From: a virus
IMG/VR virus record: IMGVR_UViG_3300039098_000044
Location: 1-51,088 of that record
Strand: one strand, 5' to 3'
DNA: 51,088 nucleotides
The translations under genes were made by a program, and so were the position numbers. Below, in pieces: positions 1-51,088 of this stretch; positions within the stretch are counted from its first letter, which is position 1; every line of letters starts with the position of its first letter. Below the pieces are notes generated by a model. It was given only the letters and a program-made list of their open reading frames with translations. It did not search any database and was not told the origin of the DNA.

Positions 1-85
1 GCGTTATGAAGATATCATTCTTCGATGCGTGCAAGCTCATAGCTGATGTATCAGGGTTTAATATAGACGAAATCAAATTCACTAA
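1..85. repeat. 85-bp sequence identical to 51004..51088 (circular-assembly overlap)
   Basis: gcgttatgaagatatc...atcaaattcactaa occurs verbatim at both window ends and lies inside one continuous primase reading frame. Confidence 0.9.
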
Positions 86-761
86 AGAAGAAGTATCATT
101 ATATAAGGAAGCAATGAAATGGTTCGATGCATTTAAGGAAGAATATAAATTCAAAGAATATCATCTTGAAATACAAGAGACATTTCCAGTAACTTCATAT
201 CGTGATTTAACTAAAGATATATTAGAGGAATATGGAGTGTTCTTTTCAAGAGACTTCATATTATCCTCTGGAAGGCCAACTCATAATAAAGTAGGATTCC
301 CAATAACATTTCAGGGAACTATTGTTGGAGTTGACCTAAGAGCTACAAAAAGTAATGATAATGTAAAATGGCTACGTCAACCTAAAGGAATTGATTGTGG
401 ACATACATTATACAATTACGATAAGGTCTATGAATCAGAAGACAATTATGTAATAATAGTTGAAGGAATCATTGACTGCTTAAAATTAGTCCAATATGGA
501 TATAATGTTTTATGTACATTTGGAGCAAGCATAACGAATAGACAAAAGCAACTCATAGAAGACCTCGGATTAACTGTTTATATAGCTTATGATGGGGACG
601 AAGCAGGCTTACATGGAGTAGATCAAGTCTTTGATAAACTTCATTATACATGTGATATATATTACATTGACATACCATTAGAATCTGATCCAGGCATGAT
701 GAAGGCCGATGAGTTCAAAGAGTTATTCGACAATGCAAAATTAATGAGGAGCAAATTATGA
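6..761 (+). CDS. dnaG: DNA primase, TOPRIM/C-terminal part; continuation of 50787..51088 across the circular junction
   Basis: TOPRIM motifs VIIVEGIIDCLK and YIAYDGDEAG; frame is continuous with the zinc-finger N-terminus at the window end (51009 equals position 6). Confidence 0.85.
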   Translation: MKISFFDACKLIADVSGFNIDEIKFTKEEVSLYKEAMKWFDAFKEEYKFKEYHLEIQETFPVTSYRDLTKDILEEYGVFFSRDFILSSGRPTHNKVGFPITFQGTIVGVDLRATKSNDNVKWLRQPKGIDCGHTLYNYDKVYESEDNYVIIVEGIIDCLKLVQYGYNVLCTFGASITNRQKQLIEDLGLTVYIAYDGDEAGLHGVDQVFDKLHYTCDIYYIDIPLESDPGMMKADEFKELFDNAKLMRSKL

Positions 762-1027
762 GTTGGAAAATTGGAGACAGAGTTAAAGTGAAAGCATTAA
801 CCCTAGAAAAATACGGAGATGCAATAAAAGTAGCTGGGTGCTACGGAACAATAACAGTTATAGGAAAAAGGCATTATGGTAAAAGTGCAGTAAATATAAA
901 AATAGATAAATGTGACCATGAATATTCAAGGTGCACTTGGACAACTTGTATAGGTGCATTCAAATCAGAAACACCTCCAACATTAATCACAACCAAACTC
1001 AGAAAAGCTGCTCAAGGGAGTAAGTAA
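758..1027 (+). CDS. small SH3/KOW-like protein, shared-C-terminal-tail family member 1
   Basis: N-terminus MSWKIGDRVKVK; C-terminus PTLITTKLRKAAQGSK; SD gaggag upstream; ATGA overlap with primase stop. Confidence 0.75.
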   Translation: MSWKIGDRVKVKALTLEKYGDAIKVAGCYGTITVIGKRHYGKSAVNIKIDKCDHEYSRCTWTTCIGAFKSETPPTLITTKLRKAAQGSK

Positions 1028-1041
1028 CTCCCGGAGGAAAC

Positions 1042-1599
1042 ATGATTATTATTTTAGTAGGAAAAAGCGGCTCTGGTAAATCAACCATAATGAGACATTG
1101 TGTTGAGCAATTAAAACTCAGCATACCAAAGTGGTTTGTTACTAGAGAACCTAGAAATGATATTTCAGATGATGTTTACACATTTTTAAGTCCACGAGAG
1201 TTTTTAGATAAGCAACTCACAAACGAGATAGAAAATGCAAATGTATTATATGGTAACCTATATGGAAGCAATTTCCCAGATTACAAACATACTAATTACA
1301 TTTCTATTATGGACGTTGAAGGTATGTGGAAGGCTAAAAGAAAATATGGTAAACATGTAATTGGAGTATTTATAGAATGCCCAGAACACGTAAGGGCTTA
1401 CAGAATGTTGATGAGAGGAGACAGTACTGAAGATGTTACGTACAGATTAGGAACAGACCGCACAATGTTTAAAGGTGCATTTGATGTAACAGATTATAAA
1501 ATAACTTCTCAAACTCCACGAGACGACATACGTGAATTAATCGATATCATAAGAGATATAGAAGAAGAGAATGGAGTTGAATTAATTGAGAAAATATAA
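1042..1599 (+). CDS. P-loop nucleotide kinase (guanylate / dNMP kinase-like)
   Basis: N-terminal Walker A LVGKSGSGKST, 185 aa, SD ggagg 5 nt upstream. Confidence 0.6.
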   Translation: MIIILVGKSGSGKSTIMRHCVEQLKLSIPKWFVTREPRNDISDDVYTFLSPREFLDKQLTNEIENANVLYGNLYGSNFPDYKHTNYISIMDVEGMWKAKRKYGKHVIGVFIECPEHVRAYRMLMRGDSTEDVTYRLGTDRTMFKGAFDVTDYKITSQTPRDDIRELIDIIRDIEEENGVELIEKI

Positions 1600-1864
1600 A
1601 AAAGGTGATAGAGTAGAGTATAAAAATTTAGCATTTGATAATAGTAATGTAGCCGATGAAATAGGAACTATTATTGTAGATAATTATAATAGTGATTATG
1701 GGCATGATTGTTTAGTAGAGTTCGACAATGATATAGGTGGACACTCTGGAGATAATGATGAAGGCAAATATGGCCATTGTTGGTATGTTGATTCTACGTA
1801 TTTAATATTAACTAAACCTAAATCAATAATCTATACAAAACTCACGGAGGCTGCCAATGGATAA
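1586..1864 (+). CDS. small SH3/KOW-like protein, tail family member 2 (TTG start)
   Basis: KKGDRVEYK N-terminus; C-terminus KSIIYTKLTEAANG; stop overlaps the dnaE ATG (ATGGATAA). Confidence 0.65.
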   Translation: MRKYKKGDRVEYKNLAFDNSNVADEIGTIIVDNYNSDYGHDCLVEFDNDIGGHSGDNDEGKYGHCWYVDSTYLILTKPKSIIYTKLTEAANG

Positions 1865-4847
1865 AGCCTTTGTACATTTACACACGCATTCCGAGTTCAG
1901 TGAGCTAGATGGGCTGGCTAAGATTCAAGATTATATCGACAAAGCAATTAAATTTGGAATGACAGCTCTAGCAATAACCGATCACGGTTCAACTAGTGGC
2001 TCTTATGAGTTGTTCCAGCTTTGTAACGGAACTCCCATTAAGCCTATCCTAGGGACAGAATTTTATATAAAAACTGAATATGGGAGAGGGCATTTAATAG
2101 CTCTTGCAATGAATAACAATGGTTGGAAGAACATTCTAAAGTTGCAGAAATATGCTTTCTCAGAAAGAGGTTTCGACAGAAAACCATGTATTGATATGAA
2201 ATCTCTTAGGCGACATAACGAGGATATCATCATAACCTCCGCATGTATAGCTAATCCAATCGGGTACTTGATAGGTCAAGACCGAGAGGAAGAAGCAATT
2301 GAAATGGCAATAGAATTTCAAGAAATATTTGGAGACAGATTCTATATTGAATTGCAGTCTTCTAAGATGGAACGACAGGATTATGCGAATAAGGGTTTAA
2401 TCAGAATCGCTAATAAGATTGGCGCCGAGATGATCCTTACAAATGACTGCCACTACGTTGAAGAGGAAGATGCATATGCGCAAGAAGTTCTTCTAGCAGT
2501 TCAAACTAAAGCTAAAATGACTGATGAAAATCGGTTCAAATTCGACTCAGATGATTATTACTTTAAGTCATACGATGAAATGATTGAGTATACCTACTTT
2601 GACGAAGCAATAGCCCATAGAGCACTCCACAATACTATTGAGGTTGCAGATCGTTGCAACGCCACAATCGAAACAGGTTCTTACTTCCCATCTTATCATA
2701 CCCTTCCAAAAGGTCAAGATGGTCAAGCTTTATTACGTAGAATGGTTACTAGACGCTACAAAGAGGATATAACAGGCGCTGGCCTGCACTCCAAACAATT
2801 TGCAGATGACGTAGCCAATGAGTTAGGCGTAATATGTAATGAGGGATTTGCCGACTACTTTCTTATAGTACAAGATTATGTAAACTGGGCAAGGCACAGT
2901 AGAATAATTGTTGGAGATGGGAGAGGCTCAGGTGCAAGTTCTAAGACAGCTTTCACAATAGGAATTACTGCAATCAACCCTGATAACTACAACTTGTTAT
3001 TTGAGAGGTTCCTTTCAAACGGACGTATCCCAGATTTCGATGTAGACTTCTCAGATAGAGAAGCAGTTATAGACTATATAATAGAGACCTATGGATCAAA
3101 CAACGTAGCAATTGTTGGTAGCTTCAATTACATGTCTACTAAGGCAGTCATAAGAAAAGTGTTATCTGCATTTGATTACGAGAGTTACTACATCACAGCC
3201 CTAACGAAAACCATAGATGAAGGTAGTGACTTGGAAAGTGCTTTGAAGAAAAGCGCTAAACTAAAAGGTCATTTTAGTAAAAACCCTGATGAACTAAAAG
3301 TTATAAGAAGACTTTATAATGTAATTAGTCACCCAGGTATTCATGCGGGTGGTGTTATTATATATCCTAATATTGCTGAATTAATCCCAGTTAGAACCTT
3401 GGGAGCAAATAGGAATAAATTAATAGCATACCTAGACAAAAGAGTTTTAGAATGGTTAGGACACGTCAAGTTTGACGTACTTGGCCTTGAGTCACTTACA
3501 GTAATGGAGGACTCAGTTAAATCTATTGCGATGGATTTAGGCACGAACATTGTCTTACATGATATAAACTACGATGACCAAAAAGTTTATGGTATGCTTA
3601 CTCAAGGAGATGTAAGTGGTATTTTCCAACTGGCAAATCAAGCGGATATGTTAATGGAGCAGAAACCAAATTGCTTCGACGACATAATCGCAATCAACGC
3701 TTTCTTAAGACCTGGTGTGGGGGATTGGGAAGAATATATATCTAGGCGTAATGGAAAAGCCTATTATTTACATCCTTTGAGAGAGCCATATCTTAAAGAG
3801 ACATGTGGTATCATAGCATACCAAGAGCAATTTGAAATGGACTGTAAAGTATTTGCTGGATGGTCTATAGCATATGCAGATAAACATGTTAGAAAAAACT
3901 ACAATTTAGCTGCTGACACAGAGCTTCAGGAAAAGTTTATGAAGGATGGCAAGAGTCTAGGATTCTCAGAGGCTCTACTGACACGTATTTGGAGTGAAAT
4001 ACTAATGGCTGCTACAGGTGGCTATTCATTTAATAAATCCCATGCAGCGTCTTATGCAATCCTAAGTTATCAATCAGCTTGGTTAAAATATAACTACCCA
4101 GCTCATTTCTATGCAAGTCTTATGACTAAAGAAGGAGATGATGCTACTAAGTTATCTAATTTAATAGCTGAAGCTAAAAGAAAGAAACTAGAGATATTAC
4201 CACCGGACATAAATAGTTCTACAGAAAAGTTCGTAGCGAAAGGTAATAAGATTTATTACAGAATTACTTCAATTGTACAAGTTGGACCATCTGCAATCAA
4301 ATCAATTATCTTAAGTAGACCCATTAAAAGTATAGAGGAATTAATAGAAGCTACAACCCGAGCAAGTTTAAAAACAAATGTTATAATGAACTTGATTAAG
4401 GCTGGATGCTTTGATTTCCAAAACACTAATAGGTTTGAAGTACTTAATCTGGCTCAGAGAGAATTAGAAATCCCTGAAGAGAACTATCCAAAGTTTAATG
4501 ACATTGAGAAAGGTAGATTAGAAAAACAAGGATTAGGAATTTATTTAACTAATCACCCACTTGACCAATTCTATTATAAACCTTTCTATGATATTGAAGA
4601 CAAAACAGTAGCTATTACGGCTGGTGAGGTTGTTGATGTATCAGAGATTAAAGATAAGAACGGAAATCTAATGGCTTTCGTTACCATCTCAAATCAATAC
4701 GGAAGTATTAAATGTATAATATTCTCTAGTAGTTGGGATAACAAAATGAAAGAAACATTCATGCTTAATGAATTTGTAGCTATTAAGGGCACCAAGTCCG
4801 GAACAAGTCTACTTATAATTAAAGCGACAAAAATGGTATTGGAGTAG
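1857..4847 (+). CDS. dnaE: DNA polymerase III alpha subunit (DnaE-type replicase)
   Basis: PHP motifs FVHLHTHSEFS..DG and ITDHG, 996 aa, C-terminal OB-fold-like segment AITAGEVVDV..AFVTISNQYGSIKCIIFS. Confidence 0.9.
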   Translation: MDKAFVHLHTHSEFSELDGLAKIQDYIDKAIKFGMTALAITDHGSTSGSYELFQLCNGTPIKPILGTEFYIKTEYGRGHLIALAMNNNGWKNILKLQKYAFSERGFDRKPCIDMKSLRRHNEDIIITSACIANPIGYLIGQDREEEAIEMAIEFQEIFGDRFYIELQSSKMERQDYANKGLIRIANKIGAEMILTNDCHYVEEEDAYAQEVLLAVQTKAKMTDENRFKFDSDDYYFKSYDEMIEYTYFDEAIAHRALHNTIEVADRCNATIETGSYFPSYHTLPKGQDGQALLRRMVTRRYKEDITGAGLHSKQFADDVANELGVICNEGFADYFLIVQDYVNWARHSRIIVGDGRGSGASSKTAFTIGITAINPDNYNLLFERFLSNGRIPDFDVDFSDREAVIDYIIETYGSNNVAIVGSFNYMSTKAVIRKVLSAFDYESYYITALTKTIDEGSDLESALKKSAKLKGHFSKNPDELKVIRRLYNVISHPGIHAGGVIIYPNIAELIPVRTLGANRNKLIAYLDKRVLEWLGHVKFDVLGLESLTVMEDSVKSIAMDLGTNIVLHDINYDDQKVYGMLTQGDVSGIFQLANQADMLMEQKPNCFDDIIAINAFLRPGVGDWEEYISRRNGKAYYLHPLREPYLKETCGIIAYQEQFEMDCKVFAGWSIAYADKHVRKNYNLAADTELQEKFMKDGKSLGFSEALLTRIWSEILMAATGGYSFNKSHAASYAILSYQSAWLKYNYPAHFYASLMTKEGDDATKLSNLIAEAKRKKLEILPPDINSSTEKFVAKGNKIYYRITSIVQVGPSAIKSIILSRPIKSIEELIEATTRASLKTNVIMNLIKAGCFDFQNTNRFEVLNLAQRELEIPEENYPKFNDIEKGRLEKQGLGIYLTNHPLDQFYYKPFYDIEDKTVAITAGEVVDVSEIKDKNGNLMAFVTISNQYGSIKCIIFSSSWDNKMKETFMLNEFVAIKGTKSGTSLLIIKATKMVLE

Positions 4848-4850
4848 TTT

Positions 4851-5246
4851 ATGACATTTTATGAATTTACAAAAATAAAAGAAAGATTTTTTAAAAAATA
4901 TAGAGGACTAGTTAAAGCAACATATAATGATTCATACATTAAATGTTTAGGATTAAATGATCATGGAGATGTTATGGTTGATTCATCTCGTATGTATTCT
5001 ATTTATGCAAGTTGTGTATATCCAAAATTTAAATTAAACAAAAATGATAAAATACAATTATATGATGGAGAAATTGTTTATTATGTACAAGAATTAAAAA
5101 ACACATTTCATATATCTTGTAAAAAAGAAATATCAACTAGATTTAGAAAACATATTAGCCCTTCACATATAATGTTTATAAATGATAAACCAGTTTATAA
5201 AATTTCAGTTATACATTCAAAACTAACCCAAGCCGCAACGAGGTAA
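4851..5246 (+). CDS. small protein, tail family member 3 (different N-terminal domain)
   Basis: C-terminus ISVIHSKLTQAATR; stop 1 nt before the start of the nuclease gene. Confidence 0.7.
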   Translation: MTFYEFTKIKERFFKKYRGLVKATYNDSYIKCLGLNDHGDVMVDSSRMYSIYASCVYPKFKLNKNDKIQLYDGEIVYYVQELKNTFHISCKKEISTRFRKHISPSHIMFINDKPVYKISVIHSKLTQAATR

Positions 5247-5247
5247 A

Positions 5248-6228
5248 ATGAAATGTAAAAATTGCAACACAGAATTATCTGCATTTCCAGTGACCTGCAA
5301 AAAATGTGATGAAGCTTTATGCGATACATGCAGTCTTGCAGAAGGTGGAATATGTAATGAATGTTCTGAGAAAGAAAACGAAACACCTGATGTATGGAGA
5401 AGGTCTTGGCTGACTCAATACGATGTGTGCCCTTATATGGTTTATAAAATGGCCGTAGAAGGTATAGTTTCAAAAGGTAATATATGGTCTAAAGTGGGAA
5501 ATATACTTCACGATATATTTGAGGAAGCATCATTAAACAAATTACCAAGAGATCAAGAAGTTTTATATTCTGAATACTTAGTTAGATTCAATGAACACAT
5601 TGAGACTGATGAAGGTAAACAAATGGTTAGTGACGCACAACAATTGGTTAAAGGCGACATAATAGAAAAGATGAAGACTAGAGGAAATTCTAGTATAGAA
5701 ACCTATTTAGACTATGAAGCTAACTCACCAGACCCATTATATACTGAAGTAAAACTATTCTTAGATATAGATGGTTGCAAAAAAATATCAGGTACAATAG
5801 ATAGAATTAATCAACTGGATGACGACGAAGTTGAAATAGTTGATTATAAATCTGGCAAGTGTTATTATGGTAAGAAATTATCGAATGATTTACAGGTGCC
5901 AATTTATATATTAGCCTATAAACAAAAGTATGGAAAATTACCAAAACGATTTGTATTTATATTTGTAGAAGATGGGAAGAAGAGGATTTTCGAGAGGATT
6001 GATGATGACAAATATTCATGTACTGTAGTTAAACGAGAATATATTATTAGCCTACAAGAAACAATTCGACATATTAAGACCATCTTTGCAAGAGTTGCAA
6101 GGGGTAATTGGAATATACCTGAAAAAATTAATTCATTCCATTGTGCTAATTTTTGTGACATAGCAAAAGCAGGTCATTGTGCTGGAGCAGATGATCAGAA
6201 ATGGATTAACCTCCGGAGAACACCATAA
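5248..6228 (+). CDS. PD-(D/E)XK nuclease, RecB/Cas4-like, with N-terminal zinc ribbons and a C-terminal Cys cluster
   Basis: CKNC..CKKC..CDTC..CNEC at the N-terminus; core IDRINQL..VEIVDYKSGK; C-terminal CANFCDIAKAGHC. Confidence 0.65.
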   Translation: MKCKNCNTELSAFPVTCKKCDEALCDTCSLAEGGICNECSEKENETPDVWRRSWLTQYDVCPYMVYKMAVEGIVSKGNIWSKVGNILHDIFEEASLNKLPRDQEVLYSEYLVRFNEHIETDEGKQMVSDAQQLVKGDIIEKMKTRGNSSIETYLDYEANSPDPLYTEVKLFLDIDGCKKISGTIDRINQLDDDEVEIVDYKSGKCYYGKKLSNDLQVPIYILAYKQKYGKLPKRFVFIFVEDGKKRIFERIDDDKYSCTVVKREYIISLQETIRHIKTIFARVARGNWNIPEKINSFHCANFCDIAKAGHCAGADDQKWINLRRTP

Positions 6229-6512
6229 TGAAAATGATAACAGTTTATGACATTGAAGGTATACCAAGCTCAAAAATAGGATATTCTAAAGAACTATATA
6301 CATTTGACGAGATGATTCATTATAAAAATTATGATGAAGCTGAATTGGAAAATGATAGAGATATAGAAGAACGAGATAATCCTAGTGGTTGGGTATTACA
6401 AGAAAGAAAAGATAAGAAATGGATTTTTGTTCCTGTTTATGAGTTTGAAGAATGGGAAGAAATTAAACATAAGTGCTCTGGTAATTGTGCCAATTGTACT
6501 TGCAAACATTAG
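6228..6512 (+). CDS. hypothetical protein with Cys-rich C-terminus
   Basis: ATGA-type overlap with upstream stop; C-terminal CSGNCANCTC. Confidence 0.6.
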   Translation: MKMITVYDIEGIPSSKIGYSKELYTFDEMIHYKNYDEAELENDRDIEERDNPSGWVLQERKDKKWIFVPVYEFEEWEEIKHKCSGNCANCTCKH

Positions 6513-6524
6513 AAAGGAAAATAA

Positions 6525-6713
6525 ATGGTAACTATTTATTTGATAACACTAGTACTAAACGTTTTATACTCAATTTATTTTTCTTCATTAGATAAATATA
6601 AAGATAAAATGTTATCAAAACTTTTAATATTATCCTTATTACCAGTATTGAATATTCTTGTATTAATAATATATTCAATCTCGTTAATAACAATATTATC
6701 AGCAAAGCCTTAA
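6525..6713 (+). CDS. small two-TM membrane protein
   Basis: SD gaaagga upstream; strongly hydrophobic 62 aa. Confidence 0.5.
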   Translation: MVTIYLITLVLNVLYSIYFSSLDKYKDKMLSKLLILSLLPVLNILVLIIYSISLITILSAKP

Positions 6714-6731
6714 TAAAGGCGGAGGTACACA

Positions 6732-7496
6732 ATTAAGTATGTATCGAGTGACTACGATGGCAGTCACAAAACAGAATTAAAACTAGCCTTTATAGGAGAC
6801 CTGCACATAGGTCATTTAAGTTTTAATGAACGTATTCTACGAATGATATTTGATGAGATTGATTCAGATATCGATAACTATCGAATTTTGTTGATGGGCG
6901 ATTTATTAGAAACAGCTACTAAATCTTCAGTCGGAGCTGGGATATTTGAGACTAATTTGACTATCGAAGAGCAGGTTGAACGAGCAAAAGAATTATTCAT
7001 GCCTTATCGTGACATAATTGATGGTATTGTAGAAGGCAATCACGAAGCCAGAATTTATAAAATGACAGGAATAGATATCACTAAAAGACTTGCAGAAGCC
7101 TTAGATATTCCATATCTTAGATACACAGGCGTTGTTAAATATAATGTCAATGGTATTAGATATATGGTTAATGTATGGCATGGTGCAGGTGGAGGAGGAA
7201 CAATAGGTAACTCCTTTAACAAATGTATTAGTATGGCTAAAAAAACATTATCAGATATATATGCAATGGGGCATACACATAAACTTGGAGTTACATCTAG
7301 ACAATTCACAGTTCCTAGAACAGTTCAAGTTGAAGAAATAACTCAACATTTTATCTTAACTGGCTCAGCATTAGACTATGATGAGTCATATCCAGATGGA
7401 ATGGGCTTGGAGAGGGTTACCCCAGGGTTCCCTATAGCTACTATGAGCGGTAAAAAAAGACACATAGATGTAGCCTTAAAAACATACAGTGGCTAA
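6732..7496 (+). CDS. calcineurin-like metallophosphoesterase; start upstream of first ATG (ATT 6732 proposed)
   Basis: Motifs GDLHIGH (upstream of ATG 6843), GDLLE, GNHE and GHTH are all in one frame; GGAGG lies 6 nt before ATT 6732. Confidence 0.65.
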   Translation: MKYVSSDYDGSHKTELKLAFIGDLHIGHLSFNERILRMIFDEIDSDIDNYRILLMGDLLETATKSSVGAGIFETNLTIEEQVERAKELFMPYRDIIDGIVEGNHEARIYKMTGIDITKRLAEALDIPYLRYTGVVKYNVNGIRYMVNVWHGAGGGGTIGNSFNKCISMAKKTLSDIYAMGHTHKLGVTSRQFTVPRTVQVEEITQHFILTGSALDYDESYPDGMGLERVTPGFPIATMSGKKRHIDVALKTYSG

Positions 7497-7989
7497 AAAA
7501 CCAATAGTAGATGAACTTAAGTGGGAAGCCCCACAAAGACCTAGACAAAAGTTAAAGTTTTCAGTACCAATTCCACCCTCAAGTAATAATGCATTTTATA
7601 ACGGAAGGCGTGGAGTTAAAACTTTTGCAAAACTTTGGATGAGCAGATGTAAGGCTCATGTTCTCCAAATAATAGCTGATGAAAACTGGAAGGAGGAAGG
7701 TGAAGAAGTATGGTTTTATATAGACATGATTTTTTACTTTCCTGATAAAAGGTTTAGGGATAATCATAATACATTTAAAATATTTTTCGATGGGCTGCAA
7801 GGAACTTTCATGGTGAATGACTATTATATAATGCCAAGAGTATTTGGTTGTTACCTTGATAGAGATAAACCTAGAGTGGAAGTTGTGATAACAGCTCAAA
7901 CAAAAACTAATCATGAAAAATATAAGAATGGATTTAATAAGAAGAAAACCAATGAGGTGACGAATGTTAAAAAAACCAACAGCGTTTAG
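7489..7989 (+). CDS. rusA: RusA-like Holliday junction resolvase
   Basis: PPSSNNAFY...FYFPDKRFRDNHNTFKIFFDGL matches the RusA pattern (PD.R.RD..N..K...D.L). Confidence 0.65.
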   Translation: MAKKPIVDELKWEAPQRPRQKLKFSVPIPPSSNNAFYNGRRGVKTFAKLWMSRCKAHVLQIIADENWKEEGEEVWFYIDMIFYFPDKRFRDNHNTFKIFFDGLQGTFMVNDYYIMPRVFGCYLDRDKPRVEVVITAQTKTNHEKYKNGFNKKKTNEVTNVKKTNSV

Positions 7990-8218
7990 AGTTCAAGTTA
8001 CATTAAGATATTCAGATGACACAGGAAGTACAATTGAACAAACAATTAATGTTTCAGAAGAACAAACATACGCTGACTTTATGGATGCTATGGCTAAAGC
8101 TTACGAAGTTGTAAGATTCACATTTGGCCCTGAAGTATACGATGAGTTATATAAAGAAAAACCAGAAGTAGAACCAGATGGCGATTCTGCTGATGATACA
8201 GACACAGAAGAGCAATAG
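7964..8218 (+). CDS. hypothetical acidic protein
   Basis: SD gaggtga upstream; acidic C-terminal tail. Confidence 0.6.
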   Translation: MLKKPTAFRVQVTLRYSDDTGSTIEQTINVSEEQTYADFMDAMAKAYEVVRFTFGPEVYDELYKEKPEVEPDGDSADDTDTEEQ

Positions 8219-8707: not shown

Positions 8708-8744
8708 GGTGATAAATAACCTACTAGTTAGTAGAGGAAAAATA

Positions 8745-9044
8745 ATGATATTCAAAGAGGAGTTCACACCATTAAACAAAATAAACCTATTACAAAAATG
8801 GATCATACTACAAAGTACAATCTACTACAAGCTCAATCAAAACATTGTAAGTGATCATGATTACGATGCAAACTCAGTTCAACTAGTGAGCCTTATGAAG
8901 GCCTATCCAGAAGAACTAAAAGAATCGAAATATTATTATGTGATGGCAGACTTTGATGGTTCAACTGGAATGGATTTATTCAGTAGGCTTAATATTGAAG
9001 ATGAAGTAGAAATGTGGACATTGGCAAGGTACTTCGTAGGGTAG
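8745..9044 (+). CDS. hypothetical protein resembling domain Ia of NAD-dependent DNA ligase
   Basis: STIYYKLNQNIVSDHDYDANSVQLVSLMKAYPEE resembles the LigA N-terminal pattern YY....P.isD.eYD.L...L...P.; no adenylation domain follows. Confidence 0.35.
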   Translation: MIFKEEFTPLNKINLLQKWIILQSTIYYKLNQNIVSDHDYDANSVQLVSLMKAYPEELKESKYYYVMADFDGSTGMDLFSRLNIEDEVEMWTLARYFVG

Positions 9045-9685: not shown

Positions 9686-9956
9686 CTATAGTTATAGTAG
9701 TTAAGTACTTCGTACTTCAAGCTAAAGCTTGTAGGATGCTTTCTCAAAGAATCTTTTATTCCCTCAGCCCTCATCACCCACTTCCGAGCCAGCAAATAAT
9801 ATTATTTTTTAATAATACATACTTTTTCCTAGATGCTTGGTTGCTTATGAGAAGCTTTCATCTAAGTATAACACATAAATCGGCATTTGTCAAGTTTTAC
9901 ATAAATACTGGTACTAATACCTACTATTAAGACCTGGTACTAACATGAGGTACTTA

Positions 9957-10610
9957 ATGAAAATATTAGAATTATTCAGTGGAACACAATCAATTGGAAA
10001 GGAGTTTATAAAAGCTGGTCACGAAGTCCTAAGTATAGAACTCAATCCAGCCTTCACAGAACCACCGTACAATCTCAATCAATGGACTGTAAATATAATG
10101 GATGTAAATGTAAATGAAATTTATGAAAGACTTGGTGGAAAACCAGACGTTATATGGGCAAGCCCAACATGCACAACTCATTCAATAGCAGCAATAAGTC
10201 ATCATAGAACTAGGTTAGATTGTGGGATATTAATCGCTAAAAGCGATAAAGCAAAAGCTCATGATATAATCTTATCTAAAACAATTAATTTAATAATGAC
10301 AATCAAGCCTACCTACTGGTTTATAGAGAACCCAAGAGGAGGTATGAGAAAGTCAGCATTAATGCAATTTATAAATAAGAATAGACATACTGTAACATAT
10401 TGTCAATATGGTGATACAAGGATGAAACCAACAGATATTTGGACTAATCATCCTAATCCAGAATTTAAACCAATGTGTAAAAATGGAGCTCCTTGTCATG
10501 AGGCGGCATCAAGAGGTTCAAGAACTGGCACACAAGGTTTAAAGGGAAATTTGGAGAGGTCTATTATTCCAAATAAATTATGTAAACATATAGTTGATAT
10601 ATGTGAATAA
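9957..10610 (+). CDS. DNA (cytosine-5)-methyltransferase, orphan
   Basis: Motif I ILELFSGTQS, PC-type motif WASPTCTTHS, ENV-type motif FIENPRGG; second ATG (9957) has GAGG 6 nt upstream. Confidence 0.6.
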   Translation: MKILELFSGTQSIGKEFIKAGHEVLSIELNPAFTEPPYNLNQWTVNIMDVNVNEIYERLGGKPDVIWASPTCTTHSIAAISHHRTRLDCGILIAKSDKAKAHDIILSKTINLIMTIKPTYWFIENPRGGMRKSALMQFINKNRHTVTYCQYGDTRMKPTDIWTNHPNPEFKPMCKNGAPCHEAASRGSRTGTQGLKGNLERSIIPNKLCKHIVDICE

Positions 10611-36694: not shown

Positions 36695-37909
36695 ATGAAA
36701 ACATTAACTAATTATGAGGATATCGTTGCATTATTAAACTCAGAAAAAGCACCTGAAGAAGCTCCTAAAAGAGCCGGAGTAGCAACTGACAAGGCTCAAG
36801 CATTTTATGTTAAGCAATGTAAACTAAAAGGCGTTGAACCTATGGAAGGTTACGACGAGCTTACTGGAGCTAACTTAACTATTCAAATCAAAGAAGTACA
36901 AAAGCTTCCCAACTTTGCACCAGTCACAGATGGTCAAATTGTAGCAATTAAAAAACGATTTGCTAAATGTAGAATGGAAGAGCCAGACGAATCTTTATTC
37001 GTAGGTATGAGTATTACTCAAGCATCATCGATGATTAATAAGCTTGATGATTTATTCCAAGATAAATGGTCACATATTCCTACACCTGGTCAAATAGAGT
37101 TCGTTACAAAAATCATGATGTGCCCTGATACTGATTCATCAGTATTATATAATGCACCTCAAGAGGTCATTGATACTCTAATCGATGCAGAAGCACAGAT
37201 TGAACTCAACACAGCAGTTGTAAATAAAGCTCTTAATATTAAACAAGATATCATCCTTAAAAAGGTTGAAGGTAATCTTGAAGATATTAAGAAAGCTATT
37301 GCAGATGCTGAATCAGTAATCGCAACTTATCAAGGAGTAGTAGTTGAATGTCAAGCTACTATAGAAATATGTAAAGAAGCATTCTCATTTGAGAACGTAT
37401 CATTCCAACAATGTTCTGATTATATTCAAAAGAATAAAGCTACTTATTATAAGTGGGCTAAAGATAGAGCATCTGAAGGTCAACGTGATCTAATTAATAA
37501 ATTAAGAAAACGTGTAGGAGACCCAGAGCTTGATTTAGAAACTCTTATGCAATTTAATAAAAACACTGCTGGTAAATACATCACTCAATTAGAGTCTGAA
37601 TCAGGTCCACTTCCAAGTACTCTTAATTTAGAAAAAGAGCACGAGGATATAGACAGAGATTTAAACTTCCCTAAAACATTGGCTGACGCTGAAGAAGCAT
37701 TCCATAAGAATGTAGTTGGCGTTATTCACAGCTTATGTGCTGTAATGGGTCAACATGCAGATGAAAACGGTATCTTTGAATCAGGTAACTTCGAAGCTGA
37801 ATTTATTGATCTAATTCAAGAAGCTTACATCTTCACAGAAAAAGGTGATATGATCGACTTACTTGCTCCTGTAATGAGCAAAGAAGATGTTGAAACAATT
37901 ATTAAATAA
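36695..37909 (+). CDS. hypothetical acidic 404-aa early protein
   Basis: SD aaaggag; followed by a strong terminator. Confidence 0.65.
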   Translation: MKTLTNYEDIVALLNSEKAPEEAPKRAGVATDKAQAFYVKQCKLKGVEPMEGYDELTGANLTIQIKEVQKLPNFAPVTDGQIVAIKKRFAKCRMEEPDESLFVGMSITQASSMINKLDDLFQDKWSHIPTPGQIEFVTKIMMCPDTDSSVLYNAPQEVIDTLIDAEAQIELNTAVVNKALNIKQDIILKKVEGNLEDIKKAIADAESVIATYQGVVVECQATIEICKEAFSFENVSFQQCSDYIQKNKATYYKWAKDRASEGQRDLINKLRKRVGDPELDLETLMQFNKNTAGKYITQLESESGPLPSTLNLEKEHEDIDRDLNFPKTLADAEEAFHKNVVGVIHSLCAVMGQHADENGIFESGNFEAEFIDLIQEAYIFTEKGDMIDLLAPVMSKEDVETIIK

Positions 37910-37981: not shown

Positions 37982-38251
37982 ATGGACATTAAGGACTTTA
38001 AGCCTACTCATAAGATTAAAAAGAAAATAGAAACCGATGGTACATTAGGTAAAGCTAAAAATGGTGAATTAATGGTATTTAAAAATAAACATGACAGATA
38101 TGAAATGTGGATTATACGTAACAACGCACCCTATTATGTAACTGAAGTACATTCTATGAACGCAGTTATAAATTTTGTACCAGCAAGATATATTATCACA
38201 GAGATATATACCTCAGTTATCAGAAGAAAACTGATGGGGAGTATCAAATAA
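37982..38251 (+). CDS. hypothetical protein; possible divergent tail-family member
   Basis: SD taggagg; C-terminus TSVIRRKLMGSIK matches only the first half of the family tail. Confidence 0.55.
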   Translation: MDIKDFKPTHKIKKKIETDGTLGKAKNGELMVFKNKHDRYEMWIIRNNAPYYVTEVHSMNAVINFVPARYIITEIYTSVIRRKLMGSIK

Positions 38252-41083: not shown

Positions 41084-41353
41084 ATGTTTAAAATTGGAGA
41101 TATGGTATATATAAATAAAAAACTTGCAAAAGATGAATCATACAAATATTATTCAAATATACGAAGAAGAATAGTAAAATATGGAGTTGGCCCATTTAAA
41201 ATAAAAAAAATAGAAGATGGTGAATTTAAATATTATTTAGATTTAAAAGAAGATATTCTTAATGAATTTTCAGAAAAAGAAATAATATTAGTAAAACCCC
41301 CAACATTAATATTAACAAAACTTAAAAAAGCATCTCAAAACAATAACAAATAA
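41084..41353 (+). CDS. small SH3/KOW-like protein, tail family member 4
   Basis: MFKIGDMVYINKK N-terminus; C-terminus PTLILTKLKKASQNNNK. Confidence 0.75.
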   Translation: MFKIGDMVYINKKLAKDESYKYYSNIRRRIVKYGVGPFKIKKIEDGEFKYYLDLKEDILNEFSEKEIILVKPPTLILTKLKKASQNNNK

Positions 41354-41914: not shown

Positions 41915-41925
41915 ATATTACATAC

Positions 41926-42001: not shown

Positions 42002-42004
42002 CAT

Positions 42005-42850: not shown

Positions 42851-42938
42851 AGAGTTTCATATTATACCTCCTTTTAATATGCAAATCGGCTCTATGGTCT
42901 TCGGCTAGAAATTGAAGACCTTACATAAGGAGATGACT

Positions 42939-43166
42939 ATGTTTAAAGTAGGAGATAAAGTCAAAAAAATAACAGGCTCAAATATAGGTAGAATAGCAAT
43001 AATAACAAGAGCATATAAAGCAAATGATGGAGACCTATATGTGCACGCACAATGGGAAAAAACATCACAAATATATTGTTACTATGCAAGAAGATTTGAA
43101 TTAGTTCATTCACCTTCACTAATCACATCAAGACTTAAGAAGGCATCTCAACATATAACACAATAA
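42939..43166 (+). CDS. small SH3/KOW-like protein, tail family member 5
   Basis: ATG 42939 preceded by aaggag; MFKVGDKVKK N-terminus; C-terminus PSLITSRLKKASQHITQ. Confidence 0.75.
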   Translation: MFKVGDKVKKITGSNIGRIAIITRAYKANDGDLYVHAQWEKTSQIYCYYARRFELVHSPSLITSRLKKASQHITQ

Positions 43167-47173: not shown

Positions 47174-47203
47174 GGGCTGACTTCGGTTAGCCCAATTTTA
47201 TTA
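47174..47203 (+). terminator. rho-independent terminator with UUCG loop
   Basis: GGGCTGAC ttcg GTTAGCCC followed by aattttattatt. Confidence 0.7.
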
Positions 47204-47228: not shown

Positions 47229-47426
47229 ATGTTTAAAGAAGATGATAATGTTATAATTAAAAATGGTTCTTATAAAGGAACTATTGGAAAAATAAATGCA
47301 ATGGGAGAACAACTATGTTCTATTAAAACAGATGATGGATCACTTTGCATATTAATTAAAAACATAGAAAAATATTATACTTCTATAATATGTAAAAGAC
47401 TCATATCAGCCTCGAAAGGAAGATAA
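47229..47426 (+). CDS. small SH3/KOW-like protein, tail family member 6
   Basis: MFKEDDNVIIKNGSYKGTIGKI N-terminus; C-terminus TSIICKRLISASKGR. Confidence 0.7.
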   Translation: MFKEDDNVIIKNGSYKGTIGKINAMGEQLCSIKTDDGSLCILIKNIEKYYTSIICKRLISASKGR

Positions 47427-47428
47427 TC

Positions 47429-47791
47429 ATGGCTTACATTGAAAAAACTAGATTTTATCAAAACTCAACAGAAGCCCCAACTAAAACTAAATTTGGTTTT
47501 AAAGCATCATATATAAAACCAAAACAACTTACGTGGGCCGAAAAGCTTGCTCAGAAGTATGAGGGTGATTGGTTTGAATATAAATACACAGCATTTTGGT
47601 TTAGTGAAAATCCAAAACATTATACAGTTAAATTAGTTGCTGATGAAGGTATATTACAATTAGTATCAGAAGATGAAGAATATATTAGTGCTTTTTATAC
47701 TAAAAGTGATTATGACCTTATTATTATTTTAAAAAATCTAATTAAAATATCAATAATAAAAACAAGATTAAGAAATACAATACATCGCTGA
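47429..47791 (+). CDS. small protein, tail family member 7 (different N-terminal domain)
   Basis: C-terminus ISIIKTRLRNTIHR; stop followed by the hairpin CGCT gatat AGCG. Confidence 0.6.
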   Translation: MAYIEKTRFYQNSTEAPTKTKFGFKASYIKPKQLTWAEKLAQKYEGDWFEYKYTAFWFSENPKHYTVKLVADEGILQLVSEDEEYISAFYTKSDYDLIIILKNLIKISIIKTRLRNTIHR

Positions 47792-47808
47792 TATAGCGGG
47801 AGAACTAA

Positions 47809-48522
47809 ATGAATTTATTAGAAATGTTAAACGAAGATTTAAATACCGATAGCAACTCAAATGAACGACCAGGGTTCACTAAGTTTGAAGTAGGCGATAC
47901 ATTAATCACTGTATTGGCTATTGGAACACCTAGATGGACACACTTCATTAAATCTGCTGGCAAATTAACAGTTAACTGCCCAGGTCAGAATTGTCCTGTA
48001 TGTTCTATCATTAGAGCTGCTAAAAAGAACGACCAAAAAACAGACCATAAATCAACTAAGAAGTATGGTATGTTAGTATATAATCACAACTCAGGTGAAC
48101 TAGAAATCTTAGACCAAAAGATTACCTTCATCAGAAACTTCCAAAGTATGTTGCAAGAATTGAAAGAAGACGCTGCTGAAGCTATTATGGAAGAAAATCA
48201 AGAATTAACTAAAGAAGAAGCTATGGAAAAAGTAGATACTAGCGTTTATGATCCCACTCAATTCGTAACAAGAATTAGAAGAAAAGGTACTGGAATGAAT
48301 GATACTGAGTATTCTTTTAAGAAGGCTCCTAAGTCAAATCAAAAACCAACACCAGAGGACATTGTTGAGAAAGCTAACGAACTTAATATTAATGAATTAT
48401 GGTTAGTGTTAGACAATGATCAATTAAAACAATTATTAGCTGGAAAAACTCTTAAAGAAATTTTTAATCCTGAAGAAGCTGACGAAGAATCTGATGGACT
48501 TGGAGTAGACTTTACAAAATAA
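47809..48522 (+). CDS. ssDNA-binding protein-like (zinc-finger type, acidic tail)
   Basis: NCPGQNCPVCS Cys cluster and acidic C-terminus EEADEESDGLGVDF; lies in the replication module. Confidence 0.4.
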   Translation: MNLLEMLNEDLNTDSNSNERPGFTKFEVGDTLITVLAIGTPRWTHFIKSAGKLTVNCPGQNCPVCSIIRAAKKNDQKTDHKSTKKYGMLVYNHNSGELEILDQKITFIRNFQSMLQELKEDAAEAIMEENQELTKEEAMEKVDTSVYDPTQFVTRIRRKGTGMNDTEYSFKKAPKSNQKPTPEDIVEKANELNINELWLVLDNDQLKQLLAGKTLKEIFNPEEADEESDGLGVDFTK

Positions 48523-48534
48523 GTAGGTGAAATA

Positions 48535-48918
48535 ATGGGAGATAAATTATCAAATTCAATTGAAGCGAAAGAAATAGTTTTGTATTATTATGAGATGCTA
48601 GAGTCACAAGTTGACAAATCAATAGCTCGATATATAAATATGGCAAAACATTTATTAAAGACATACTCAAAAGAAGAAGTGCTTTATACAATAGACCATT
48701 GTGTTAAACATCAACCTTCTGGGGGCATGTATAGTTTTGGATTCATTGGAACAATGATAGAAGAAATATCTGCCCAATATAGATCAGATGTAGCAAAAGA
48801 AATAATCAAGAAGGCTGAAGCTAACTCAAAAGAAATTGGTGAATTGCCCAAGGCTTCTGATAACTCTAAGAAACTTAAAAATTTCGGTATCAAAAAGGAG
48901 TTTGATTGGGATGCGTAA
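48535..48918 (+). CDS. hypothetical replication-module protein
   Basis: SD taggtga; position before the helicase. Confidence 0.55.
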   Translation: MGDKLSNSIEAKEIVLYYYEMLESQVDKSIARYINMAKHLLKTYSKEEVLYTIDHCVKHQPSGGMYSFGFIGTMIEEISAQYRSDVAKEIIKKAEANSKEIGELPKASDNSKKLKNFGIKKEFDWDA

Positions 48919-49177
48919 AGATTTAAATAAAATGGAACACCTCGAAGTATTAGCAGTAGGAAGTAAATTTTATGCTTCTGATGTAAACAAATATATGGTT
49001 TGTAAAAATAAATATCCAACTGTAATAAACATATATACTGACGAATGTTTTCAAAACTTTGAAAAAACAATAAAATGTAACAGCAATTGGTTTAACTCAT
49101 TTAAAAATAAATTTTATAATATGGGAAGTGTATCAATAATCCGCATCAAGCTCAATCAGGCTGCTCAACGCCAATAG
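48911..49177 (+). CDS. small protein, tail family member 8
   Basis: ATG 48911 overlaps the upstream stop; C-terminus VSIIRIKLNQAAQRQ. Confidence 0.65.
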   Translation: MRKDLNKMEHLEVLAVGSKFYASDVNKYMVCKNKYPTVINIYTDECFQNFEKTIKCNSNWFNSFKNKFYNMGSVSIIRIKLNQAAQRQ

Positions 49178-49187
49178 GCGGAGGGAT

Positions 49188-50546
49188 ATTATCAGCAATA
49201 TAACGGCTGCTGCATCTGAGCGGCAAATATTAGGAATCTGCATACAGAACCCAGATAAAATAGTTAACTGCGAATCAGAAGGATTAATTTATGATCACTT
49301 CGGAATTGAAGCAAACAAATATATTTATATGGTTTGTATGTATTTATATGGTAAAAAACTCAAACCAACCCCAGCAATGATTCTAGAAGTCCTACCAAGC
49401 GATAGAGCTAAGAAAGCTGTTGAAGAAGTAGGTGGACTTGAATACTTAATGGGCTTTGATAGAGTTAGAGTTAAGTCTGAAAATATAGTAATGTATATTG
49501 AGAAGATAAGACAAGCACATACTCGTAGAGAAATCATAAGGATATGTGAAGAAACAACTAAAAAAATGGAAGATGATTCTGCAAATGTTCTTAACCCTGC
49601 AGAGCTTATATCAGTCGTTGATAAAAAACTAACTGACATTAATGTAGGTAGTGCATTATCAAGTGACGTCTACAAAATAGGTGATGACACAGATAGAATA
49701 CTCGCGGAAAGGGCTGAAACCCCAAATGCAATACCAGGACTAGAAGTAGGCTTTCCTAAGTTTGATAGAATAACTAATGGAGGACAACCAGGAGATTTAA
49801 TCTTTGTGGCTGCTCGTGCTAAAACTGGTAAATCAGTATCACTAACTAATTGGGCAGTTAAGCTAGGACTAATAGATAAACTACCAATTCTATATATAGA
49901 CACTGAAATGGACTCTCGTGAGAATGAGGATAGGATAATAGCATTATTAACCGGAATACCTCACAGCGAGATAGTATCAGGGCTTTATATGTTAGACACT
50001 GAATATGGAACCTCAGAAGAGAAATTAGATAAAATAGCTGAAGCTAAACAAATCATGAAAGATGGTAATCTATATCATATATATATGCCAGGATTTACTT
50101 TAGAGAAAGTAGTAGCTATTACTAGACAATTTCAAATGCAACATGGAATAGTAGCATTATTCTTTGACTACTTAAAATTCCCTGCATCTGAAATGGCAAC
50201 ATTAAAAACAGTTCAAGAATGGCAAATGTTAGGATTCTTAGCAAGTGGATTAAAAGACCTTGCTGGAATATTAAAGATTCCTGTTTACAGTGCTGTTCAA
50301 GAAAATAGAAGTGGAATAGATACCCAAAGAAAGAATGCTGGGAACATAGCTGGCTCAGATAGAATACTTCAACTTGCAACTAAGTTAATATTCTTGTACA
50401 ATAAAGACCCTGAAGAGATAGCTAAACATGGGCCTGACGCAGGCAATCAATGGTTATATATAGCATTTCAAAGGAATGGTGAGAGTGACGTTGATCCAAT
50501 TCCATTAAGATTTTATAAAAATATATTAAGGCAGGTGGAAGTCTAA
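49188..50546 (+). CDS. dnaB: replicative DNA helicase (DnaB-type); start upstream of first ATG
   Basis: N-terminal AASERQILGICIQNPDKI lies upstream of ATG 49329; Walker A ARAKTGKS, Walker B-like VALFFDYL; the only in-frame starts after SD GGAGGG are ATT, ATC or ATA. Confidence 0.75.
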   Translation: MISNITAAASERQILGICIQNPDKIVNCESEGLIYDHFGIEANKYIYMVCMYLYGKKLKPTPAMILEVLPSDRAKKAVEEVGGLEYLMGFDRVRVKSENIVMYIEKIRQAHTRREIIRICEETTKKMEDDSANVLNPAELISVVDKKLTDINVGSALSSDVYKIGDDTDRILAERAETPNAIPGLEVGFPKFDRITNGGQPGDLIFVAARAKTGKSVSLTNWAVKLGLIDKLPILYIDTEMDSRENEDRIIALLTGIPHSEIVSGLYMLDTEYGTSEEKLDKIAEAKQIMKDGNLYHIYMPGFTLEKVVAITRQFQMQHGIVALFFDYLKFPASEMATLKTVQEWQMLGFLASGLKDLAGILKIPVYSAVQENRSGIDTQRKNAGNIAGSDRILQLATKLIFLYNKDPEEIAKHGPDAGNQWLYIAFQRNGESDVDPIPLRFYKNILRQVEV

Positions 50547-50794
50547 TGAGAATTCGTGGAATTAATTATACAATTGGAGAAAAACTTATATTCAATGAAC
50601 GAGAATGTATAGTAGTTTCATTTGATGAAATGGATAATTGGGAACCAATGTTAGTTCGATATACAGATGGTTCTATTGATGCAGACAACTATCAGGTTTG
50701 GGTTGACACTGACGATTTTGATTGTGAAGCTATACAAAAACCTTATATGTCATCAATCAATAAAAGATTATTAAAAGCAGCACGCCATGAATAA
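50546..50794 (+). CDS. small protein, tail family member 9
   Basis: ATGA overlap with the dnaB stop; C-terminus MSSINKRLLKAARHE; overlaps the primase ATG. Confidence 0.7.
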   Translation: MRIRGINYTIGEKLIFNERECIVVSFDEMDNWEPMLVRYTDGSIDADNYQVWVDTDDFDCEAIQKPYMSSINKRLLKAARHE

Positions 50795-51088
50795 CATCAA
50801 GTTTATAAAATCAAAAGCTGACATCAAGGCTATATTAGACTACTTAGGGGTTGACATTATAGAAAATGGTGATAGCTATCGTTCGTCTTGCCCAATCCAC
50901 CAGGGCAGTAATAAAAGTGCATTTGATATAAATGCTGATACAGGAATGTGGTTCTGTCATACTAAATGTAAGCATGGAGGAGACATAATCGAGCTCGTAC
51001 AAAGCGTTATGAAGATATCATTCTTCGATGCGTGCAAGCTCATAGCTGATGTATCAGGGTTTAATATAGACGAAATCAAATTCACTAA
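50787..51088 (+). CDS. dnaG: DNA primase N-terminal zinc-finger part (continues at position 6)
   Basis: CHC2-type finger SSCPIHQGSNKSAFDINADTGMWFCHTKC; ORF is open to the window end. Confidence 0.85.
   Translation, partial: MNNIKFIKSKADIKAILDYLGVDIIENGDSYRSSCPIHQGSNKSAFDINADTGMWFCHTKCKHGGDIIELVQSVMKISFFDACKLIADVSGFNIDEIKFT
51004..51088. repeat. 85-bp copy of 1..85 (circular-assembly overlap)
   Basis: Verbatim identity with the first 85 nt. Confidence 0.9.

Follow-up and report, generated by a model that had tools for sequence, protein, structure and literature searches.

A short C-terminal helix common to unrelated small early proteins of a circular phage genome, a candidate docking element

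The window, i.e. the whole stretch of 51,088 nt analysed here, carries an 85-nt direct overlap at its termini (the last 85 nt are the first 85 nt), which indicates a circular assembly. A primase gene spans the two ends, with its N-terminal part at 50787..51088 (+), continuing at 1-761, and its C-terminal part at 1..761 (+). Both features bear out the initial annotation, according to which the block found at the beginning of the window runs on at 47229..51088 of a circular genome. The other replication genes of this block encode an SSB-like protein with an acidic C-terminus (47809..48522, +), a DnaB-like helicase (49329..50546, +), a guanylate-kinase-like (d)NMP kinase (1042..1599, +), a DnaE-type DNA polymerase III alpha subunit (1857..4847, +) and a PD-(D/E)XK (Cas4-like) exonuclease (5248..6228, +). 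A terminator-like hairpin (47174..47193, +) lies immediately upstream of the operon, and the next one on this strand (6798..6813, +) is likely its end. We recognised neither a clamp gene nor any other gene for an obvious hub in the window.

The early and replication region contains ten small ORFs, all on the + strand, that end in a shared tail. They are real protein-coding genes; seven are interleaved with the DNA-replication genes and three are located elsewhere. Member D (47229..47426, 65 aa), the first gene past the upstream hairpin, has a weak KOW match and the tail SIICKRLISASKGR. It is followed by member E (47429..47791, 120 aa), upstream of the SSB gene, with the weaker tail SIIKTRLRNTIHR, and by member F (48911..49177, 88 aa when read from the ATG at position 48911; the mechanically called ORF begins at 48836), with the tail SIIRIKLNQAAQRQ. 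Member G (50546..50794, 82 aa; tail SSINKRLLKAARHE) sits in the gap between DnaB and primase. Member A (758..1027, 89 aa) has a KxGDxV SH3/KOW-like start and the tail PPTLITTKLRKAAQGSK (codons at about 977-1024), member B (1586..1864, 92 aa) uses a TTG start, and member C (4851..5246, 131 aa) has the tail SVIHSKLTQAATR; the motif-bearing ends of these three are, respectively, LITTKLRKAAQGSK, IIYTKLTEAANG and VIHSKLTQAATR, each running up to the stop codon. A, B and C fill exactly the primase/kinase, kinase/DnaE and DnaE/nuclease gaps to which three family members had originally been assigned. Three more genes were found beyond those listed at that time. The first, 41084..41353 (89 aa; tail PPTLILTKLKKASQNNNK), lies outside the replication block behind a radical-SAM gene; the second, 42912..43166 (84 aa; tail SPSLITSRLKKASQHITQ), is also outside the block and likely starts with MFKVGDKV at 42939; the third, 37982..38251 (89 aa; tail SVIRRKLMGSIK), is a probable, weak member of the set.

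The tail was searched for as the strict motif [ST]-[ILV]-I-x-x-[KR]-L-x-x-A-[AS]. Six-frame translation of the window gave eight matches, compared with a mean of 0.135 and a maximum of 2 in 200 dinucleotide-preserving shuffles. All of them are on the + strand and at the C-termini of ORFs; the motif is absent from non-coding sequence, from the other frames and from the structural (- strand) genes. It is followed by zero to seven variable residues. Variable codons lie between conserved ones, and paralogues use different synonymous codons for the same residue (AAA or AAG for K; CTC, CTA, TTA, CTT or CTG for L; GCT, GCC or GCA for A). Since codon positions 1 and 2 are kept while position 3 wobbles, the constraint acts on the protein. 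The synonymous differences among paralogues also rule out recent gene conversion as the source of the like tails; ancient conversion followed by synonymous drift could in principle account for their concerted change. In a more general form the tail is a helix of about 11 residues, [S/N/D]-[P/K]-h-h-x-K-h-h-x-h-h (h, hydrophobic), and the helical hydrophobic moment of the tails exceeds that of residue-shuffled controls, although the window-type tail (KLxxAA) is weakly hydrophobic and its moment is barely above the controls (0.49 vs 0.39). The C-termini of primase and DnaB look like some tail types, without covariation, and this may be due to chance.

The regions upstream of the tail are a different matter. 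None of the ten members had a Pfam, PHROG or NCBIfam match above the cut-off (only sub-threshold KOW and L24), and a PDB sequence search of the ten returned nothing above threshold; multi-copy homologues of the B body do match SH3_12. An AlphaFold2 model of B built on a 49-sequence alignment, which replaced one based on three sequences (pLDDT 58), has a mean pLDDT of 83 and is arranged as a barrel at residues 1-75 (pLDDT 87-94), a linker (TKPKS) and the tail helix IIYTKLTEAAN at residues 81-91 (64-70). Its top Foldseek matches were PsaE, KOW ribosomal proteins, CAP-Gly, YorP and the Xrn1 SH3 domain, with E-values of only 7e-3 to 5e-2, and the comparison with YorP (2HEQ) gave TM scores of 0.56/0.61 and an rmsd of 2.3. 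The B body is thus predicted to be a five-stranded SH3-like barrel of the YorP/Xrn1 kind. Several other members have SH3/KOW-like hints in their N-terminal sequence, and the bodies of C, E, G and 37982..38251 have no detectable sequence similarity to B. The small ORFs are best described as a set of modular genes and not as a homologous family in the classical sense.

A way to separate the history of the tails from that of the bodies is to compare related phages. Three of them (L001, L062 and L068, with DnaE 67-74% identical) retain orthologues of the small genes at the same positions (that of member C, for example, in all three), but the tail consensus, common to all paralogues of a genome, differs from one genome to the next: KFxELF in L001, LLxVL in L062 and KLLxAI in L068. 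L014, L070 and L071 have one tail-bearing gene of such a type each. When all tail types were aligned gap-free (30 registered tails), mean similarity was 24.4 within genomes vs 10.3 between them, a difference reached by none of 10,000 label permutations, in a set where only about four genomes have several tail members each. In an earlier registration, body-defined orthologues scored 9.4 in the tail across genomes and paralogues of the same genome 20-28. The bodies behave in the opposite way, with paralogous bodies nearly unrelated (scores of 20-40) and orthologous ones scoring 66-159. The helix is therefore constrained at the amino acid level, is found only at the C-terminus and has changed in concert across the paralogues of each genome.

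Unbiased clustering of C-terminal tails over loci of at least 5 kb (L001-L067) flagged this clade alone. Its more distant members (L063-L067, DnaE 46-54%) have the same replication module with interleaved small ORFs and lack the shared tail, and none was found in the gene context of P0003 (L013), a distant homologue of the body. In other phages this same SH3 body carries different recurrent C-terminal tags, and L072 is a second phage with a shared tag of its own. Positions 1-8000 of the window had no match in a DNA search of the phage collection. A tblastn search with DnaE gave cultured relatives only, at no more than 34% identity, and a metagenome search with DnaE retrieved L001 again plus relatives about 30% identical. 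Three window proteins (43183-44448, 44451-45407 and 36695-37909) did not recover the rest of the L001 genome from viral contigs. A phyletic-pattern search for partners (genes present in tail-bearing and absent from tail-less loci) produced a candidate list that was limited by locus coverage and too long to point to any one gene.

We favour, with moderate confidence, the view that the tail is a portable amphipathic C-terminal docking helix that co-evolves with one common partner. Each protein would consist of a distinct body, a short Ser/Pro-rich linker and the shared amphipathic helix of about 11 residues, and all the members would bind with it the same groove of a single protein, possibly a hub of the host or else a replication or early protein of the phage. 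A tail that is common to all paralogues and changes in concert in each genome points to one common partner and not to private ones. The specificity of this partner would drift between phage lineages with all the tails following, while the bodies may bring different activities or contacts to the hub in early infection and replication. A more specific version is tentative: a hub-and-spoke arrangement in which some ten early proteins with unrelated bodies reach one receptor through an interchangeable address helix, the code being rewritten in each lineage together with the receptor. This receptor might belong to the replisome or be a hub of the host.

It is unlikely, though worth considering, that the tail is instead a shared degron or protease-adaptor tether for ClpX. 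Early proteins would then share one timetable of removal or delivery, and the tail types would follow the protease of the host. Like ssrA (LAA), MuA (RRKKAI) and the XB tether of SspB, the tails are short, strictly C-terminal and common to unrelated proteins. The members belong to early operons, and a phage M42/M28-like peptidase gene is present at 44451-45407. In addition, the tails of the window and of L068 are basic with Ala (LKKASQ, LRKAAQ, KLLKAIRA), and we take them to recall, loosely, the C-termini of MuA and SspB. On the other hand, the zero to seven trailing residues leave the free carboxylate inconsistently placed, the conserved N-cap and helical periodicity suit a docking helix better than an extended degron, and two of the four tail types (the acidic-hydrophobic ones of L001 and L062) are unlike any known degron.

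Similarly improbable is that the helix acts within the family, either capping its own beta-barrel (in a Sso7d/chromo-like way) or mediating hetero-oligomerisation of the members. SH3-like barrels often have a C-terminal capping helix (self-capped barrels are a recognised variant of the fold), and in the AlphaFold2 output for B the barrel is followed by a helix that could be either free or packed on it. Mutual binding would likewise yield concerted evolution. However, an intramolecular cap is expected to co-evolve with its own body and not with paralogues, whereas here orthologous bodies are conserved and their tails differ between genomes; the Pro/Ser linker and the lower pLDDT suggest a detachable element. 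A helix of 11 residues is also short for forming a stable bundle.

The initial annotation had proposed that each small ORF is translationally coupled to the enzyme gene downstream, made in fixed ratio with it and its dedicated partner, a model that we now consider quite improbable. Its sequence observations stand up well. The stop codon of B overlaps the ATG of dnaE (ATGGATAA), whose Shine-Dalgarno (SD) sequence GGAGG sits within the tail codons ACG GAG GCT, and the nuclease gene is preceded by GAGG and TAAAATG, so that SD and start codons do fall within or next to the residues that follow the motif. The stop of G overlaps the primase ATG (ATGAATAA), and overlaps or gaps of 1-17 nt are found at six junctions (B/dnaE, G/primase, C/nuclease, D/E, A/kinase and E/SSB). 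The adjacency of B to DnaE and of C to the nuclease is kept in four genomes. But the geometry is not special to these genes. At B/dnaE, G/primase, C/nuclease and D/E the stop and start codons overlap or lie a few nt apart, with the SD inside the upstream ORF, but the majority of non-family junctions are built in this way too, and the family is not set apart by it. Tight junctions are the rule in the + strand early block, with a median gap of 13.5 nt for tail genes vs 1.5 nt for non-family genes, and 151 nt separate F from dnaB. The claim that each enzyme has its own small partner is also unsupported, since three members are away from replication enzymes, the adjacency of body and enzyme is not conserved and a single concerted tail is common to all, which would be unexpected for private partners. 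Bodies change slots between genomes: the 4570-type body of L001 is before the kinase in L001 and before DnaE in L068, L070 and L062, while in L065 the kinase abuts DnaE without a small ORF between them. Translational coupling to downstream genes is plausible, but the interleaving of the genes and their tight junctions reflect the usual compaction of an operon and are not a sign of enzyme-specific partners, and the post-motif residues are, because of this compaction with replication genes, free to carry the SD or start of the next gene. A programmed frameshift fusion of B and DnaE was considered from the sequence only, and no slippery heptamer was seen by eye.

Finally, a nucleic-acid signal (a phage promoter, a translation-initiation operator of the next gene or a cassette recombination site) is very remote, even if the motif is found repeatedly at the ends of genes, ahead of the following start codon, and one cassette (41084 in the window, 3348-3605 in L001, there between DnaB and primase) occupies different slots in two genomes. 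We reject a cis-acting repeat because of the codon-phase conservation with third-position wobble and the absence of the motif from non-coding sequence and other frames. A fixed operator is rejected because the distance between the motif and the start that follows ranges from about 6 to over 150 nt; 41084 has no close protein-coding gene downstream, its neighbours being a doubtful 56-aa ORF after 13 nt and then tRNA genes. DNA identity over the tail codons, read by eye, looks too low for homologous recombination.

The docking helix has partial parallels among known systems. The acidic tails of T7 gp2.5 and gp4 bind gp5/thioredoxin, and SSB-Ct (DDDIPF) is the bacterial hub tail; these too are short modular C-terminal peptides that, past a flexible linker, dock proteins of the replication module to a common surface. 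In our case, however, some ten small proteins carry an amphipathic, partly basic helix and not an acidic peptide ending in Phe. The acidic run with a hydrophobic-Pro-Phe end typical of SSB-Ct was not found in the tails, which are amphipathic and range from basic to neutral. An acidic end (...GVDFTK) is confined to the phage SSB, which has this separate ...DF tail of its own. Sliding-clamp motifs (QL[SD]LF, the PIP box QxxhxxFF, the T4 gp45-binding C-termini) also connect many unrelated proteins to one hub through one short hydrophobic motif, frequently at the C-terminus, and the KFxELF tails of L001 are superficially like them, but there is no Gln, the helix is longer with an i, i+3, i+4 spacing, and Ala-Ala is at the end of the window tails. 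Neither a correctly placed Gln nor the spacing of QL[SD]LF, QLxLxL or QxxhxxFF was seen in any of the 30 registered tails. Encapsulin cargo-loading peptides and the coat-binding C-terminal helices of phage scaffolding proteins similarly combine a linker and a short C-terminal peptide on unrelated cargo, co-varying with the receptor; here, in contrast, the tail genes are in the early/replication block and the structural (- strand) genes lack the motif. Member B resembles Bacillus subtilis SPbeta YorP and the Xrn1-type SH3-like families (Pfam SH3_12, SH3_15, DUF4314) in body fold and sequence signature, but these are defined by the barrel, and a genome-specific tail on non-homologous bodies is not part of them. 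The tail set as a whole matched no known family among those compared.

The majority of small early genes in phages are without an assigned function. Ten of them can here be placed in one probable interaction network by a single feature, a genome-specific C-terminal helix on proteins that are otherwise unrelated. Should its receptor be a component of the replisome or a hub of the host, the network would provide a compact natural case of co-evolution between a short motif and its receptor, and also a means, needing sequence only, of finding "dark" phage genes that are functionally linked. The recurrent tags on the same SH3 body elsewhere, together with the tag of L072, hint that private address codes may be a general, undescribed organisation of phage early proteomes.

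Three small ORFs set between the replication genes of the window, A (758-1027), B (1586-1864) and C (4851-5246), are present exactly where the initial annotation had placed them, and all of them end in the same C-terminal motif, [ST]-[ILV]-I-x-x-[KR]-L-x-x-A-[AS], with 2-4 more residues before the stop codon. A six-frame regular-expression scan with this strict motif gave eight matches in the window, every one on the + strand and at the C terminus of an ORF, against a mean of 0.135 in 200 dinucleotide-preserving shuffles. Once looser matches are counted there are ten members: the seven genes A to G that lie among the replication genes and three further ones (41084-41353, 42912-43166 and, with a weaker match, 37982-38251), none of which adjoins a replication enzyme.

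The window has the appearance of an AT-rich phage genome (~34% GC). Its last 85 nt (51004-51088) repeat the first 85 (1-85) exactly and in direct orientation, which indicates a circular assembly or terminal redundancy; the primase gene runs across this junction (51088/1). The + strand carries the early and replication genes from ~34.6 kb through the ends of the window to ~12.2 kb, and a large - strand block (~12.2-34 kb), with a 1772-aa ORF at 12523-17841, presumably contains the structural genes. One densely packed unit is delimited by terminator-like hairpins at 47174-47193 and 6798-6813. Its first part reads D, E, SSB, a 127-aa gene, F, DnaB, G and primase, and the second A, a guanylate-kinase-like kinase, B, DnaE, C, a PD-(D/E)XK nuclease and two further small genes. 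Accessory genes of the early block encode a radical-SAM enzyme (40288-41073), an M42/M28-like peptidase (44451-45407), an HNH/NUMOD4 homing-endonuclease-like protein (45480-45974) and a fragment similar to the N-terminal domain of NAD+-dependent DNA ligase (8709-9044). Three tRNA genes (Pro-GGG, Phe-GAA and Trp-CCA; 41824-42078) are found between two tail-bearing genes.

Searches with DnaE and the kinase retrieved a small clade of relatives: contigs of 50.3 kb (L001, Ga0193960_1000047, the same contig as L015), 6.2 kb (L062) and 52.7 kb (L068/L069; L068 is Ga0366826_1000223), with DnaE 72, 68 and 74% identical to that of the window, and three short fragments without a DnaE score (L014, L070 and L071). 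The four DnaE proteins are at roughly equal distances from one another (67-74% identity). Small ORFs occupy the same slots as in the window, and by their bodies (the part preceding the tail) several are orthologous. All four genomes have the C type; the B type is found in the window, L014 and L001, and L001 also has the F and 41084 types. Tails are uniform inside the genome of each relative, yet unlike that of the window: [SN]-[PK]-I-x-x-K-F-x-E-L-[FL] in nine ORFs of L001, S-P-I-Y-x-K-L-[LM]-x-A-[IV]-[KR] in nine of L068, [ND]-P-[ML]-[LI]-x-x-[LM]-[LM]-x-[VA]-[IL] in three of L062, and SKILAKLLEVLDG and SKILLKLLEAIK in single ORFs of L070 and L071. All types can be aligned free of gaps and have one hydrophobic pattern in common (i, i+4, i+7, i+8), which follows an S/N/D-P helix N-cap.

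Tail similarity (mean BLOSUM62 over 11 registered positions) was 24.4 within genomes versus 10.3 between them, a difference that 10,000 label permutations never approached (the largest was 6.0, against 14.1 observed). Under an earlier registration, the tails of orthologues defined by their bodies reached only 9.4 across genomes, whereas the same tails scored 20-28 against paralogues of their own genome. The bodies behave in the opposite way, paralogues being essentially unrelated (20-40) and orthologues clearly similar (66-159). As judged from these sequences, the C-terminal module is evolving in concert, lineage by lineage, over some ten unlinked genes. L063-L067, which are more distant (DnaE 46-54%), have the same replication module with interleaved small ORFs, and the shared tail was not found in them; when C-terminal tails from L001-L067 (loci of at least 5 kb) were clustered without bias, this clade alone was flagged. 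Some distant relatives (L063, L064 and L013) encode a ThiF/E1-like protein, and the first two have, further upstream, a small ORF ending in ...QIKGA and ...QVKGN..., respectively; the regions concerned are L063 313-525 and 3247-3909, L064 323-766 and 3239-3907, and L013 1660-2325. Together the two genes may form a ubiquitin-like conjugation module, of which none is apparent in the window.

In the AlphaFold2 model of B (49-sequence alignment), residues 1-75 form a confident beta-barrel (pLDDT 87-94), from which a short linker (TKPKS) leads to a helix of lower confidence (residues 81-91, IIYTKLTEAAN, pLDDT 64-70). The helical hydrophobic moment of the tails exceeds that of shuffled controls, clearly for L001, L062 and L068 and slightly for the window type. 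Foldseek matches of the B model, with marginal E-values, are SH3-like barrels (PsaE, KOW ribosomal proteins, CAP-Gly, the SPbeta protein YorP and the SH3-like domain of Xrn1). The B body is a widespread SH3-like domain: a profile search gave 479 matches among 1.84 billion representative proteins, and the domain often occurs in tandem copies matching Pfam SH3_12. Stand-alone homologues of ~90 aa from other phages (P0134-P0274) carry several discrete recurrent C-terminal types (...IDEQEMEKFL, ...VYGIVKF..., ...I..xC..[LI]Y and ...SFDE[IL][IM]), so that C-terminal tags may be a general feature of the B-type SH3 domain. An unrelated phage contig with TROVE and T4 Y00F-like genes (L072) encodes three proteins (3409-4050, 9708-9959 and 10001-10300), two with SH3 bodies and one without, that end, or nearly so, in h-x-x-x-C-x-x-[IL]-Y (h, hydrophobic), and could be another instance of a tag common to proteins of one genome.

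The closest analogies to the shared tail are the C-terminal docking tails of replisomes (T7 gp2.5 and gp4, SSB-Ct), clamp-binding motifs, encapsulin cargo-loading peptides and scaffolding-protein helices, and C-terminal degrons. None of the tails matches the consensus of any of these, no curated family covering the member proteins was found, nor any description in the literature of a genome-specific shared tail of this sort. Given these known analogies and missing matches, the mechanism would by analogy be classed as short-motif-mediated hub docking, itself a known mechanism. The tail could also be a shared degron or protease tether, which we consider unlikely. It is similarly doubtful that the helix acts as an intramolecular cap or mediates mutual oligomerisation of the members.

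The initial annotation proposed that each small ORF is translationally coupled to the downstream enzyme and serves as its private partner. The geometry it described is there: at the B/dnaE junction the Shine-Dalgarno sequence of dnaE (GGAGG) lies inside the tail codons of B and the dnaE ATG overlaps the stop of B (ATGGATAA); the same kind of overlap joins G to primase (ATGAATAA), and C is separated from the nuclease gene by 1 nt. The residues after the motif appear free of constraint, and this probably allows them to accommodate the Shine-Dalgarno site or start codon of the next gene. Such junctions are not specific to the family, the median gap being 13.5 nt for its genes versus 1.5 nt for the rest of the block. 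An 8-nt start/stop overlap, ATGnnTAA, recurs at 48911/48918 (127-aa gene/F), 50787/50794 (G/primase) and 1857/1864 (B/dnaE). As to private partners, bodies change slots from genome to genome, L065 has no ORF between kinase and DnaE, and a shared tail points to one partner for all members rather than one for each enzyme; the proposal as a whole is quite improbable.

That the repeated sequence is a nucleic-acid signal is extremely improbable: with the ten tails anchored at the conserved K/R, the first and second codon positions carry much information and the third little, synonymous codons vary between members (L, CTC/CTA/TTA/CTT/CTG; A, GCT/GCC/GCA; K/R, AAA/AAG/AGA) and the distance from motif to next start ranges from ~6 to more than 150 nt, which indicates that the constraint acts on the peptide. 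The codon-phase pattern and the variable spacing rule out a promoter, operator or recombination site, and the differing synonymous codons rule out recent gene conversion among tails.

The C termini of two replication proteins resemble tails of the relatives: that of primase (window 700-761, ...EFKELFDNAKLMRSKL; L001, ...LFRELFENAKKMR) the L001 type (KF[KR]ELF), and that of DnaB (window 50510-50546, FYK[NK]ILRQVE[VA]) the L068 type (IYxKLLxAV). Neither covaries with tail type, and the likeness may be due to chance or point to the receptor. Among the genes of the window neither a clamp nor any other obvious hub was recognised, and a comparison of phyletic patterns did not discriminate among candidate partners. 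The best-supported interpretation is that these small early proteins form a modular set sharing a portable amphipathic C-terminal helix, which would act as their common docking peptide. All the tails would dock to a single partner, the receptor groove of which would have drifted between lineages, with all the tails following.
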